A stretch of 64,000 nt of DNA from a phage, in the sequence record PZ295659.1. One strand, written 5' to 3'. Shown here one piece after another: positions 19,773 to 59,199 of the stretch. Under the pieces are notes generated by a model. The model made no database searches. It was not told where the DNA came from and saw only the letters and a list, made by a program, of their open reading frames with translations. Position 1 is the stretch's first letter; each line of letters opens with the position of its first letter. Position numbers and translations under genes: made by a program.

Positions 19773-21341
19773 ATGACTACTATCAAAACTAAAGCTCAGC
19801 TCGTAGACAAATGGAAAGAACTGCTGGAAGGTGAAGGCCTGCCGGAAATCGCTAATAGCAAGCAGGCTATTATCGCTAAAATCTTCGAAAACCAGGAAAA
19901 AGATTTCGAAGTATCCCCTGAATATAAAGACGAGAAAATCGCTCAGGCATTTGGTTCTTTCTTGACCGAAGCTGAAATTGGTGGTGACCACGGTTATAAT
20001 GCTCAGAACATCGCAGCAGGTCAAACCTCTGGTGCAGTAACCCAGATTGGGCCGGCAGTTATGGGTATGGTTCGTCGTGCTATTCCTAATCTGATCGCTT
20101 TCGATATTTGTGGTGTTCAGCCTATGAACAGCCCTACCGGTCAGGTATTTGCTCTCCGTGCAGTATATGGTAAAGACCCTATCGCTGCTGACGCTAAAGA
20201 AGCTTTCCATCCGATGTATGCTCCAGACGCGATGTTCTCTGGTCAGGGTGCTGCTAAGAAATTCCCAGCTCTGGCTGCTAGCACACAAACCGTTGTAGGT
20301 GATATCTATACTCACTTCTTCCAGGAAACTGGTACTGTGTATCTACAAGCTTCCGCTGTAGTAACAATTGATGCTGGCGCTACCGATGCAACTAAACTGG
20401 ATGCTGAAATTAAGAAACAAATGGAAGCTGGTGTACTGGTAGAAATCGCTGAAGGTATGGCTACTTCTATCGCTGAACTTCAGGAAGGTTTCAACGGTTC
20501 TACCGATAACCCATGGAATGAAATGGGCTTCCGTATCGATAAACAAGTTATTGAAGCTAAATCTCGTCAGTTGAAAGCAGCTTACTCCATCGAATTGGCA
20601 CAAGACCTCCGTGCAGTACACGGTATGGATGCTGATGCTGAACTGAGCGGTATTCTTGCTACTGAAATTATGCTGGAAATCAACCGTGAAGTTGTTGACT
20701 GGATTAACTACTCCGCTCAGGTTGGTAAATCTGGTATGACTAATATCGTTGGTTCTAAAGCTGGTGTATTTGACTTCCAGGACCCGATTGATATCCGTGG
20801 TGCTCGTTGGGCCGGTGAAAGCTTTAAAGCTCTGTTGTTCCAGATTGATAAAGAAGCAGTTGAAATTGCTCGTCAAACCGGTCGTGGTGAAGGTAACTTC
20901 ATTATCGCTTCCCGTAACGTAGTTAACGTACTGGCTTCAGTTGATACTGGTATTTCTTACGCTGCACAGGGTCTGGCTTCTGGTTTTAATACCGACACTA
21001 CTAAGTCTGTATTTGCCGGTGTACTTGGTGGTAAATACCGCGTATACATCGACCAGTATGCTAAACAGGATTACTTCACCGTTGGTTACAAAGGCGCTAA
21101 CGAAATGGATGCAGGTATTTACTATGCTCCTTACGTTGCACTCACCCCACTGCGTGGTTCCGATCCTAAGAACTTCCAGCCGGTAATGGGCTTTAAAACT
21201 CGTTACGGTATCGGTGTTAACCCGTTTGCTGAAAGTTCCCTGCAGGCTCCAGGCGCTCGCATCCAGTCCGGTATGCCGTCTATCCTGAACAGCCTTGGTA
21301 AGAACGCTTACTTCCGCCGTGTATATGTAAAAGGCATCTAA
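19773..21341 (+). CDS. 23: major capsid protein gp23
   Basis: 522 aa; near-identical to recalled T4 gp23 (LLEGEGLPEIANSKQAIIAKIFENQEKDF, AIPNLIAFDICGVQPMNSPTGQVFALRAVYGKDP). Confidence 0.97.
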   Translation: MTTIKTKAQLVDKWKELLEGEGLPEIANSKQAIIAKIFENQEKDFEVSPEYKDEKIAQAFGSFLTEAEIGGDHGYNAQNIAAGQTSGAVTQIGPAVMGMVRRAIPNLIAFDICGVQPMNSPTGQVFALRAVYGKDPIAADAKEAFHPMYAPDAMFSGQGAAKKFPALAASTQTVVGDIYTHFFQETGTVYLQASAVVTIDAGATDATKLDAEIKKQMEAGVLVEIAEGMATSIAELQEGFNGSTDNPWNEMGFRIDKQVIEAKSRQLKAAYSIELAQDLRAVHGMDADAELSGILATEIMLEINREVVDWINYSAQVGKSGMTNIVGSKAGVFDFQDPIDIRGARWAGESFKALLFQIDKEAVEIARQTGRGEGNFIIASRNVVNVLASVDTGISYAAQGLASGFNTDTTKSVFAGVLGGKYRVYIDQYAKQDYFTVGYKGANEMDAGIYYAPYVALTPLRGSDPKNFQPVMGFKTRYGIGVNPFAESSLQAPGARIQSGMPSILNSLGKNAYFRRVYVKGI

Positions 21342-21365
21342 TCTTAATTGATTAAATCTTATTTT

Positions 21366-21383
21366 GGGAGACTTCGGTCTCCC
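21366..21383 (+). terminator. GGGAGAC-UUCG-GUCUCCC hairpin terminator after gene 23
   Basis: Perfect 7-bp stem with UUCG tetraloop followed by AUUUUGG; the same 18-mer recurs at 2027-2044 and, reverse-complemented, at 43864-43881 and 59231-59248. Confidence 0.7.
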
Positions 21384-21392
21384 ATTTTGGTT

Positions 21393-21662
21393 TTATTTCT
21401 GTGCAATTTCGATGTAAGTTTTCAAAATATTTTGCCAATTAGGCATACCTTCTTGGACATATGCTAGAGAACCGTCTTTGTTTTTGAATGATGCAAGTTT
21501 ATCAGTGGCCCAATAACCTTTAGCTCGAGCTTCAGAATCAACTTTCATCCATACTTTGTTGAAGGCATTACCATTAACTTTTGCACCATATTTTTCTACC
21601 AACTTAACTGCTTCAGCTTCCAGAACTTTTAAAGTATCTCGTAAGAAACGTGCTTTAGTCAT
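21393..21662 (-). CDS. hypothetical 89-aa protein, antisense to the late capsid operon
   Basis: Minus-strand ORF with its own early-type promoter and a GAGGAG RBS; sits in the 23-24 intergenic region where T4 carries segD; no recognisable motif. Confidence 0.5.
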   Translation of the reverse strand: MTKARFLRDTLKVLEAEAVKLVEKYGAKVNGNAFNKVWMKVDSEARAKGYWATDKLASFKNKDGSLAYVQEGMPNWQNILKTYIEIAQK

Positions 21663-21691
21663 TTTGTTTACTCCTCTGTAGTTGATAAGTC

Positions 21692-21721
21692 TATAGTATC
21701 ACATACTAAATACGTTGTAAA
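21692..21721 (-). promoter_or_regulatory. early promoter (GTTTAC-N18-TACTAT) for the 89-aa ORF
   Basis: Minus strand reads GTTTACAACGTATTTAGTATGTGATACTAT, matching the T4 early promoter architecture. Confidence 0.55.
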
Positions 21722-21727
21722 CAATCT

Positions 21728-21735
21728 TTATAAAT
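21728..21735 (+). promoter_or_regulatory. late promoter TATAAATA for gene 24
   Basis: Exact TATAAATA 28 nt upstream of the gp24 ATG. Confidence 0.6.
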
Positions 21736-21763
21736 AATCTATATCACATAAGGAAAAAATGCA

Positions 21764-23047
21764 ATGAGTAAAATCCAAAAATTATTGCGTGAATCTACAA
21801 CGTCTACTAGCAACTCAATTGGTCGCCCAAATCTCGTTGCTTTGACTCGCGCTACGACTAAATTAATATATTCTGACATTGTAGCAACACAAAGAACTAA
21901 TCAACCTGTTGCTGCTTTTTATGGTATCAAATATCTTAATCCAGATAACGAATTCACATTTAAAACTGGTGCTACTTATGCAGGCGAAGTTGGATATGTA
22001 GACCGAGAAAAAATTACTGAGCTCACAGAAGAATCAAAAGTCACACTAAATAAAGGCGATTTTTTCAAATATAATAATATCGTCTATAAAGTGTTAGAAG
22101 ATACACCATTTGCAGATATTCAAGAAAGTGATCTAGAATTAGCTCTTCAGATTGCGGTCGTTCATTTAAAGGTACGGTTATTTTCAGATGCAGCGGTAAC
22201 AAGCAAATTTGAAAGCTCTGGTAGCGAAATTTCTGATGCAAGATTCCAGATTAATAAATGGCAAACTTCGGTCAAATCTCGTAAACTTAAAACTGGTCTT
22301 ACAGTTGAATTAGCGCAAGATTTGGAAGCGAATGGATTTGATGCCCCTAACTTCTTAGAAGATTTGCTTGCTACTGAAATGGCTGATGAAATTAATAAAG
22401 ATATTCTTCAGTCTTTAATTACTGTATCGAAACGTTATAAAGTTACTGGAATTACTGACACCGGATTTATTGACTTGAGCTATGCATCCGCTCCAGAAGC
22501 AGGTCGTTCATTATATCGAATGGTGTGTGAAATGGTATCACACATTCAAAAAGAGACAACTTATACTGCAACGTTTTGTGTAGCCTCAGCTCGTGCAGCT
22601 GCTATTCTTGCTGCTTCCGGTTGGTTGAAACATAAGCCAGAAGATGACAAGTATCTTTCACAAAATGCTTATGGATTCTTGGCAAATGGATTACCTCTTT
22701 ACTGCGATACCAACAGTCCGTTAGATTATGTTATTGTGGGTGTTGTAGAAAATATCGGCGAAAAAGAAATTGTAGGGTCCATCTTTTATGCTCCATACAC
22801 TGAAGGAGTAGATTTAGATGACCCGGAACATGTCGGTGCATTTAAAGTTGTAGTTGATCCAGAAAGCTTGCAACCGTCTATCGGATTATTGGTTAGATAC
22901 GCTTTATCAGCAAATCCTTACACAGTAGCAAAAGATGAAAAAGAAGCGAGAATAATTGATGGCGGGGATATGGATAAAATGGCAGGACGTTCAGACTTGT
23001 CTGTTTTACTCGGTGTTAAATTGCCAAAAATTATCGTTGATGAATAA
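21764..23047 (+). CDS. 24: capsid vertex protein gp24
   Basis: 427 aa, same as T4 gp24; gp23-like fold paralog directly after the major capsid gene. Confidence 0.9.
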   Translation: MSKIQKLLRESTTSTSNSIGRPNLVALTRATTKLIYSDIVATQRTNQPVAAFYGIKYLNPDNEFTFKTGATYAGEVGYVDREKITELTEESKVTLNKGDFFKYNNIVYKVLEDTPFADIQESDLELALQIAVVHLKVRLFSDAAVTSKFESSGSEISDARFQINKWQTSVKSRKLKTGLTVELAQDLEANGFDAPNFLEDLLATEMADEINKDILQSLITVSKRYKVTGITDTGFIDLSYASAPEAGRSLYRMVCEMVSHIQKETTYTATFCVASARAAAILAASGWLKHKPEDDKYLSQNAYGFLANGLPLYCDTNSPLDYVIVGVVENIGEKEIVGSIFYAPYTEGVDLDDPEHVGAFKVVVDPESLQPSIGLLVRYALSANPYTVAKDEKEARIIDGGDMDKMAGRSDLSVLLGVKLPKIIVDE

Positions 23048-24447: not shown

Positions 24448-24638
24448 TTCTTCACCTTTTTGTTAATAAAACGTTTACGGTATACAACTTTTTCTTTTGC
24501 TTTAAACTTTGACCGAGCTGTCTCAGCTTTAGTCCATAATAATCCAACTTCTTTAGGTTGTAAACCGATTTTTTGAGCAATTTCTACGAATGAAAATCCC
24601 GCCTCATGTAATGTATAAACTTCAACTTCAGCTCTCAT
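24444..24638 (-). CDS. small HTH-like protein with basic C-terminal tail (64 aa from ATG)
   Basis: Segment YTLHEAGFSFVEIAQKIGLQPKEV resembles a sigma region 4 / LuxR-type helix-turn-helix; the track start at 24644 is a TTG, the first ATG is at 24638. Confidence 0.4.
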   Translation of the reverse strand: MRAEVEVYTLHEAGFSFVEIAQKIGLQPKEVGLLWTKAETARSKFKAKEKVVYRKRFINKKVKK

Positions 24639-37030: not shown

Positions 37031-37060
37031 ATAGTATCACACATCCATGTGTTTGTAAAC
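37031..37060 (-). promoter_or_regulatory. early promoter (GTTTAC-N18-TACTAT)
   Basis: Minus strand reads GTTTACAAACACATGGATGTGTGATACTAT, between the alt stop and the downstream ORF. Confidence 0.5.
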
Positions 37061-59170: not shown

Positions 59171-59199
59171 ATAGTATCATGTTTAAAGGAAAAGTAAAC
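59171..59199 (-). promoter_or_regulatory. early promoter (GTTTAC-N17-TACTAT)
   Basis: Minus strand reads GTTTACTTTTCCTTTAAACATGATACTAT; shares the 20-nt block TTGATAAGTCTATAGTATCA with the promoter at 21692-21721. Confidence 0.55.

Follow-up and report, generated by a model that had tools for sequence, protein, structure and literature searches.

A predicted early gene on the antisense strand between capsid genes 23 and 24 of a T-even phage

Introduction

Why does a small open reading frame (ORF) lie on the opposite strand between two late capsid genes of a T-even phage, is it a gene with a transcription unit of its own, and what might its product do? The locus is part of a 64,000-nucleotide stretch of phage DNA, here called the window (record PZ295659.1), that belongs to a Mosigvirus, an RB69-like T-even phage. 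Gene 23, which encodes the major capsid protein, is found at 19773..21341 on the plus strand and forms the left flank. Gene 24, which encodes the capsid vertex protein, is found at 21764..23047 on the plus strand and forms the right flank. The slot at 21342-21763 is the exact gap from the stop of gene 23 (21341) to the start of gene 24 (21764), and an initial annotation that had delimited it as the 23-24 interval matches both gene ends exactly. Gene 24 is followed by rnlB, which is on the minus strand. The Mosigviruses HX01, JS09, PhAPEC2 and APCEc01 share 99% identity with the window across the interval and its flanks.

The ORF is already annotated as a 'hypothetical protein', in more than 200 genomes. 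A literature search found no transcript, protein or phenotype data for it in any phage, and the Mosigvirus transcriptome literature yielded no expression data. A search of the literature for the names and accessions of the ORF found the 2006 RB69 genome paper only.

The Antisense ORF and Its Homologs

The 89-amino-acid ORF is located at 21393..21662 on the minus strand, so that it converges on gene 23 and points away from gene 24. Both this position, antisense to the late capsid genes, and the translation given in the initial annotation are confirmed. The assignment of the ORF to the RB69ORF188c/189c family (PHROG 6003) comes from the ORF list, a profile match and syntenic homologs. The profile match (E = 7.2e-45) covers the full length of the protein and aligns its residues 1-89 with positions 1-90 of the 90-position profile. 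A tblastn search finds the ORF in 240 phage records, with an identity of 90% or more in about 120 of them and of less than 60% in 119; the intact 89-amino-acid form is also present in about 120 other Mosigvirus records.

Syntenic homologs with 31-71% identity are common to four T-even genera and lie antisense between genes 23 and 24. Examples include the copies of Dhakavirus JS10 (32% identity), Gaprivervirus VR20 (38%) and Tequatrovirus EP01 (34%), the last showing that some Tequatrovirus carry the ORF, and three metagenomic T4-like contigs that have it in the same slot at 71, 70 and 60% identity. Pairwise Nei-Gojobori comparison of the syntenic loci gives dN/dS values of 0.04-0.47 with dS near saturation, a pattern that shows clear purifying selection. 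The protein of gene 24 is about 95% identical to its Tequatrovirus counterparts and about 70% identical to those of Dhaka- and Gapriver-type phages, and the small ORF (31-38% identity), judged by these alignments, evolves much faster than the neighboring genes.

A Predicted Early Promoter

The initial annotation had described a promoter, GTTTAC-N18-TACTAT, and a GAGGAG ribosome binding site in front of the ORF. Both are present where it placed them, and the promoter stands well above chance. The promoter occupies 21693..21722 on the minus strand and is predicted to be of the T4 early (sigma-70) type from a position weight matrix (PWM), the enrichment of its class and its conservation. Its -35 element GTTTAC (21722-21717) is followed by an 18-nt spacer and by TACTAT (21698-21693), which is preceded by TGA and thereby forms an extended -10 element, TGATACTAT (21701-21693). 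Transcription is predicted to start near 21686. The Shine-Dalgarno (SD) sequence GAGGAG, read directly from the sequence, lies at 21671..21676 on the minus strand; the -10 element is 17 nt upstream of it and the ATG follows 8 nt later. All homologous loci have an SD-like GGAG core at the equivalent place.

A generic sigma-70 scan of the region shows no excess of promoter-like sites over shuffled sequence, and the phage's own promoter class was tested instead. The window contains 13 copies of the pattern GTTTAC-N16-19-TANNNT where 4.35 would be expected. None of the shuffles gave as many, and 11 of the 13 copies are on the minus strand. A two-block PWM was trained on nine other minus-strand sites, with the ORF's own site left out. 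In this leave-one-out setting the ORF promoter scores 45.4 bits and ranks second among all positions on both strands. With the training sites and their shifted copies set aside, the next best position reaches 18.4 bits, and the best position in shuffled sequence reaches 27.4 bits. The layout of promoter, SD and ATG recurs at eight of the 10 other minus-strand sites. Two other promoters repeat parts of the ORF promoter without a change, the one at 59199 its TACTATagacttatcaac stretch and the one at 37060 its GTGATACTAT block. The position of the promoter and its 18-nt spacer are kept in RB69, LF82-5, JS10, VR20, EP01, T4 and the three metagenomic loci, and the -35 GTTTAC is kept in five of six homologous loci. 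By its -35 element, its spacer and extended -10 element, and the SD and ATG that follow, the promoter belongs to the T4-type early class. Inspection by eye revealed no MotA-box middle promoter upstream of the ORF, and neither inspection by eye nor the list of TATAAATA sites gave a minus-strand late promoter there.

A late promoter, TATAAATA, is predicted for gene 24 at 21729..21736 on the plus strand, 28 nt before the gene. The two promoters stand back-to-back, and the late one reaches into the region upstream of the early one. The late box is found at 18 sites in the window, where 7.5 would be expected, and most of these sites are on the plus strand. The gene 24 copy is invariant in all aligned loci. 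Counterparts of both promoters were predicted in RB69, the early one as Pe:109605 (minus strand, score 29.9) and the late one as Pl:109573 (Nolan et al., 2006, PMC1524935). The reading of the locus as an early gene with its own promoter is thus well supported in silico and was in part published in 2006.

Could the ORF be no more than a fortuitous frame in the spacer between the two genes, with a promoter-like motif in front of it by coincidence? The flat result of the generic sigma-70 scan is what such a frame would give, but the phage-specific model places the site second in 64 kb, and the full-length homologs in the same slot have saturated synonymous and constrained non-synonymous positions. 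The conservation data in effect refute a chance frame, which we consider extremely improbable. Because syntenic homologs, low dN/dS, the conserved promoter position and spacer, the SD and the late box all coincide, the ORF is, on comparative evidence, a genuine and old gene. It is very probably also an independently transcribed early gene.

The Hairpin and the End of the Transcript

An intrinsic terminator of the gene 23 transcript is predicted at 21365..21394 on the plus strand. It comprises an 8-bp stem and a cUUCGg tetraloop followed by UUUUGGUUUU. The hairpin itself, GGGAGAC-UUCG-GUCUCCC at 21366-21383, had been proposed to terminate both the gene 23 transcript and the convergent one. It is stable on either strand (plus, dG -14.4 kcal/mol and z = -4.0; minus, dG -13.5 kcal/mol and z about -4) and its role for gene 23 stands; its role for the minus strand does not, since on that strand the sequence past the hairpin reads AAAAUAAGAUUU and contains no U-run. 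The extra-stable cUUCGg form of the loop exists only on the strand of gene 23, a terminator scan calls the hairpin on the plus strand only, and in RB69 a TransTerm terminator labelled '23-><-RB69ORF188c' was listed at the equivalent place, again on the plus strand only (PMC1524935 supplement). The missing minus-strand U-run and the plus-only calls of both the scan and TransTerm rule out a bidirectional intrinsic terminator, and the U-run on the plus strand alone makes the hairpin a terminator for gene 23 only. The hairpin is conserved in five of six loci, and so is the asymmetry of the U-run. The exception is VR20, whose hairpin is a different one and is flanked by a T-run on either side. An Rfam scan of the interval found no RNA family.

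If the transcript of the ORF is not stopped here, antisense transcription itself could be the main role of the unit, as an 'anti-late' RNA or by transcriptional interference that would hold the capsid genes silent early on, and the ORF would then be secondary. During T4 infection, RNA complementary to late mRNA is made early. The lack of a minus-strand U-run past the hairpin in those five loci would allow read-through, there is no convincing minus-strand terminator for more than 1 kb inside gene 23, and the promoter is kept even in T4, which is without the ORF. The protein appears to matter, however, given the purifying selection on the ORF and the strong SD in every locus. The VR20 hairpin, with its U-run on the ORF strand, would block read-through there, and untranslated antisense RNA would be a good substrate for Rho. 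T4 late genes, moreover, require gp55, gp33 and gp45 and are hence already silent early. We consider a primarily antisense role quite unlikely.

segD and the Exchange of Alleles

As the initial annotation had it, the interval from gene 23 to gene 24 holds segD in T4. The T4 gene is on the minus strand and thus shares both slot and orientation with the ORF. The initial annotation further took the ORF to stand here in place of segD. The shared slot holds, but the ORF family is the common occupant of it across four genera and probably an older one than segD. The region upstream of T4 segD aligns with the promoter region of the window and reads ATTTAC-N18-TATTAT at the same position. It scores 17.6 bits against 45.4 for the ORF promoter, and from this alignment the T4 segD promoter is a homologous copy, decayed or weaker.

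A review found no promoter for segD and considered its transcript to be probably vanishingly low (Edgell et al., 2010, PMC2988022). In time-resolved omics of T4, segD is classed as 'early RNA / middle protein', and its protein was quantified by mass spectrometry (PMC9697503 supplements). Since T4 segD occupies the homologous slot behind a homologous and weaker promoter and is classed as early RNA, early transcription of the ORF slot is indirectly backed by homology; among experimental hints of early timing, this T4 result is the best one.

The initial annotation had also regarded the interval as a hotspot of insertion, and Mosigvirus LF82-5 bears out that it is one of exchange: exactly this ORF is swapped there for a divergent allele together with a segD homolog. 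Both flanks of the slot in LF82-5 match the window at 94-95% identity. The replaced stretch corresponds to window positions 21394-21670; it begins immediately past the SD, runs to the stop codon, and in LF82-5 holds a JS10-type allele (97% amino acid identity to JS10, 32% to the window). The SegD homolog lies downstream of the allele on the same strand. It is 57% identical to T4 SegD (E = 3e-86) and matches SegE_GIY-YIG weakly. The order of ORF and then segD is also found in Dhakavirus IME341 and in several other Mosigviruses. The class of the allele does not track genus. Three genera share the JS10-type allele at 92-97% identity while their capsid genes differ far more, and this near-identity implies that alleles move horizontally through the slot. 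Homing with co-conversion would be the natural vehicle for the exchange, and the pattern fits it.

Such traffic raises the question of whether the ORF is merely a passenger that is co-converted beside the segD site and brings the phage no benefit. The exact replacement of the SD-to-stop stretch by a JS10-type allele plus segD in the LF82-5-type Mosigviruses, the recurrence of the ORF-then-segD order in IME341 and the independence of allele class from genus are all in keeping with a passenger. Most carriers, however, are without segD (the window, JS10, VR20, EP01 and the approximately 120 Mosigvirus records), the dN/dS well below 1 over a deep divergence indicates selection on the protein, and the homologs in unrelated phages have no endonuclease nearby. 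We therefore regard a mere passenger as improbable.

Protein Family and Predicted Fold

The protein is small, soluble and basic (pI 9.6). The initial annotation had reported no recognisable family for it. Pfam yields no domain apart from a sub-threshold match to DUF4859, NCBIfam yields no match, and PADLOC, whose models describe defense rather than anti-defense proteins, yields no family at E <= 1. The statement holds for these three collections and fails in one respect: the protein belongs to PHROG 6003 and is the product of the RB69ORF188c/189c gene. Homology search and structure prediction, both of which had been suggested, give PHROG 6003 as the only family and a fold without a known relative (AlphaFold2, Foldseek).

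An exhaustive HMMER profile search of 1.84 billion representative proteins returned seven matches, and a second profile search of 5.8 billion proteins returned 25 clusters, all of stand-alone proteins of about 85-100 amino acids and without useful annotation. The pI is at least 9.2 (9.2-10.1) in 24 of the 25 family members; the median pI of small SD-preceded minus-strand ORFs in the window is 5.6. The AlphaFold2 model (pLDDT 87, pTM 0.75) predicts a helix at residues 3-25, a second helix at 31-48, a beta-hairpin at 56-70 and a third helix at 76-88. The loop between helices 1 and 2 carries a nearly invariant NGN (N30, G31, N32), and the invariant residues of the family cluster there. A profile search of PDB sequences gave chance-level matches only (E of at least 0.095) and Foldseek found nothing below E = 0.5 in the PDB. 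Among viral structures Foldseek found a single significant match, an 88-amino-acid member of the family itself (TM 0.77, 30% identity). On the model, the fold is confidently predicted and has no known relative. The PDB and viral fold searches revealed no similarity to known anti-defense or host-takeover proteins.

Several other identities were considered and rejected. A match to a 655-amino-acid protein with six Cyt-b5-like repeats (PF00173) covers a motif of about 24 residues (50-70) that resembles the N-terminal strand region of the repeat, its score is inflated by five repeats, and the ORF compared with PF00173 directly gives no match. The ORF is not a GIY-YIG homing endonuclease of the seg family, as Pfam detects no GIY-YIG domain in it. 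T4 internal proteins carry an N-terminal capsid-targeting sequence that resembles MKTYQEFIAE. The N-terminus of the ORF, MTKARFLRDT, is without such a sequence, and a packaged internal protein is rejected; the match of the ORF to the 'internal virion protein' family PHROG 8765 is non-significant (E = 0.022).

Accessory Status and Genomic Settings

The ORF is lost or shortened in a number of phages. In the RB69 reference its frame is broken by indels into fragments of 29 and 41 amino acids (ORF189c and ORF188c), shortened versions of 51 and 64 amino acids occur in the phages mogra and 310Ecol104PP, and most Tequatrovirus records are without it. From this distribution the ORF is most likely a dispensable, fast-evolving accessory gene. 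Outside the T-even phages, its homologs are found in large unrelated phages within long arrays of small ORFs, unannotated and all on one strand, or, in another setting, at the junction of tail and replication modules. Such arrays and junctions are typical habitats of early accessory genes. As a separate observation, the repeated loss of the ORF could also mean that its contribution to the phage is small.

Proposed Role

The overall explanation that we find best, and moderately probable, is a self-contained early unit that opposes the late capsid operon and whose product is a host-directed accessory protein. Within the first minutes after infection, the sigma-70 polymerase of the host would initiate at the strong promoter GTTTAC-N18-TGATACTAT and make a leader of about 24 nt that contains GAGGAG, after which the 89-amino-acid ORF would be translated. 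The stop codon of the ORF lies 9 nt before the terminator hairpin of gene 23. The early transcript may then end inefficiently at the hairpin, or by the action of Rho in the untranslated antisense of gene 23; an ending of one of these two kinds is probable because the hairpin is without a U-run on the ORF strand, and read-through is a third possibility. Early in infection the product would bind, in stoichiometric fashion, an acidic macromolecule of the host. This partner could be a nucleic acid or an acidic protein, and such binding would make the product a host-takeover or counter-defense factor, a plausible role that the initial annotation had also raised. The basic pI that is kept across the family speaks for an acidic partner and is by itself a weak pointer to any particular one. 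That the product is a host-directed binding protein of some kind is about an even call, and a specific function in counter-defense is possible and rather doubtful.

In a more elaborate version, the protein would have a new fold and would act early to inhibit a host factor or an anti-phage defense system. The two allele classes, window type and JS10 type (about 32% identical), would represent alternative specificities that pass from one T-even genus to another through the 23-24 slot, with segD as the vehicle of allele replacement. This is a tentative idea and we think it less likely still. A milder variant of it supposes that the ORF region contains the target of SegD, so that the divergence of alleles doubles as immunity to cleavage.

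The product might instead be a small nucleic-acid-binding regulator of the phage's own expression, with the adjacent early and late promoters or the capsid mRNAs as its targets. The conserved basic pI would suit such a protein, as would the position of the gene within the head-gene cluster in four T-even genera and the overlap of its promoter with the upstream region of the gene 24 late promoter. Low-ranking Foldseek matches in the PDB include several winged-helix or DNA-binding domains. These matches are scattered and not significant (E about 1, TM 0.2-0.3), and we treat the winged-helix ones as noise. The homologs in unrelated phages also lie away from capsid genes, in early small-gene arrays or after tail genes. 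Finally, the gene is broken in RB69, which is fully viable, and the ORF is thus not needed for expression of the capsid genes. A regulator of the phage's own expression is unlikely in our judgment, and a host-directed accessory protein remains the preferred reading.

Significance

The ORF adds one more small early accessory gene to a familiar class in T-even phages, in a mobile slot. With a confident fold that has no relative and a top-ranking predicted early promoter, it is a reasonable candidate for host-takeover or counter-defense screens. The antisense slot between genes 23 and 24 would be an early transcription unit conserved across four genera, and such a unit would explain how T4 segD can be expressed early despite a review that reports no promoter for it. 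The swap of the SD-to-stop stretch for a foreign allele and segD offers a clean natural case of endonuclease-linked exchange in an essential capsid operon.

Comparison With Known Systems

RB69ORF188c and RB69ORF189c (NP_861878 and NP_861879) are the same gene as the ORF described here. Over the interval the DNA is 97% identical, and promoter, SD and hairpin are shared. The RB69 reference has the gene in broken form and the window has it intact, with 89 amino acids; neither name comes with a function.

T4 segD shares with the ORF the slot, the antisense orientation, and the position and spacing of the promoter. The proteins, however, are unrelated: the ORF is less than half the length of SegD and is without a GIY-YIG domain.

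The growth-inhibitory proteins of Mosigvirus AV110 (e.g., Emp/Gp94) are small, early and restricted to Tevenvirinae, and have a fold without known function; their role is likened to the one proposed for the ORF. No sequence relationship between them and the ORF was found. The AV110 screen covered 45 early proteins that were picked by homology to T4 early proteins (bioRxiv 10.64898/2026.09.14.751387). The ORF has no T4 homolog, and the choice by T4 homology therefore places it outside that toxicity screen.

The ORF also resembles the small early 'novel ORFs' described by Nolan et al. (2006), for which 13 early promoters were listed upstream of novel ORFs in RB69 (PMC1524935). The ORF shares with these genes the type of promoter, a strong SD, small size, a lack of database matches and variable presence. 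It differs from them in its location: most novel ORFs lie in early regions and are co-directional with their neighbors, whereas the ORF of the window stands alone inside the late head-gene cluster.

Allelic replacement at the 23/24 junction and gene 24 duplication

The interval between gene 23 and gene 24, which in the window holds the 89-aa ORF on the minus strand, is variable among relatives. In Mosigvirus LF82-5 (L012 2494-3430), window 21394-21670 is exactly swapped for another cassette, which consists of a JS10-type allele and a segD homolog. The junctions of the swap fall at the SD at one end and at the stop codon at the other. Judged from the sequence, the replacement looks like a footprint of homing and co-conversion within the capsid operon. 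The gene for the vertex protein, gene 24, is duplicated in tandem in Dhakavirus JS10 (L002 1-2399), in Gaprivervirus VR20 (L003 1-2394) and in a 173-kb metagenomic T4-like contig (L008 337-2901); the window carries one copy.

The ORF in RB69 and among database matches

The RB69 reference (NC_004928) has the gene at L005 1792-2032, corresponding to window 21393-21662, where it is broken into two annotated mini-ORFs, 188c (41 aa) and 189c (29 aa). The frame is split because of a short divergent stretch that bears an insertion, together with a 1-nt deletion. The split gene is either a laboratory-strain pseudogene or an old sequencing error.

P0006, a 90-aa phage protein homologous to the ORF and encoded on a 173-kb contig, is labeled by JGI as "NADPH-dependent curcumin reductase CurA," which is evidently a mis-annotation. 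P0013, which matches ORF residues 40-70, is a 655-aa metagenomic protein with six cytochrome-b5-like repeats. It has a motif of about 24 residues (WTxEKLAxYNGKNGQPAYI) in common with the β-hairpin region of the ORF (YWATDKLASFKNKDGSLAYV). The E-value of this match is inflated by five repeats, and the resemblance was set aside as probably due to chance or to a shared local hairpin motif.

Promoters

Across the whole window the late and early promoter classes have strong strand biases in opposite directions. The late-promoter box TATAAATA occurs 18 times (7.5 expected), 14 of them on the plus strand; of the 13 GTTTAC-type early promoters, 11 are minus-strand sites. Such a split between the strands is classic for T-even phages. 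One minus-strand early promoter, at 24536-24565, lies within the gene 24.3 coding region and is directed at 24.2 and rnlB. It scores 44.7 bits with the two-block PWM, of whose training set it is a member, and its RB69 equivalent is Pe:112451. The promoter and 5' leader of the ORF (21659-21752) have 77-79% DNA similarity to stretches that neighbor ipI (the gene for internal protein I) and further small genes in Tequatrovirus and Klebsiella T4-like phages. The genes themselves are probably not homologous; the likeness would come from early-promoter and leader DNA that they have in common.

In T4 (NC_000866), where segD occupies the same slot and strand as the ORF, the early promoter persists in degenerate form (ATTTAC-N18-TATTAT, 17.6 bits with the PWM) upstream of segD at L014 5234-5323. 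A 2010 review stated that segD has no promoter (PMC2988022), while T4 omics class it as early RNA with detectable protein (PMC9697503). The homologous T4 promoter, as read from its sequence, may resolve this discrepancy.
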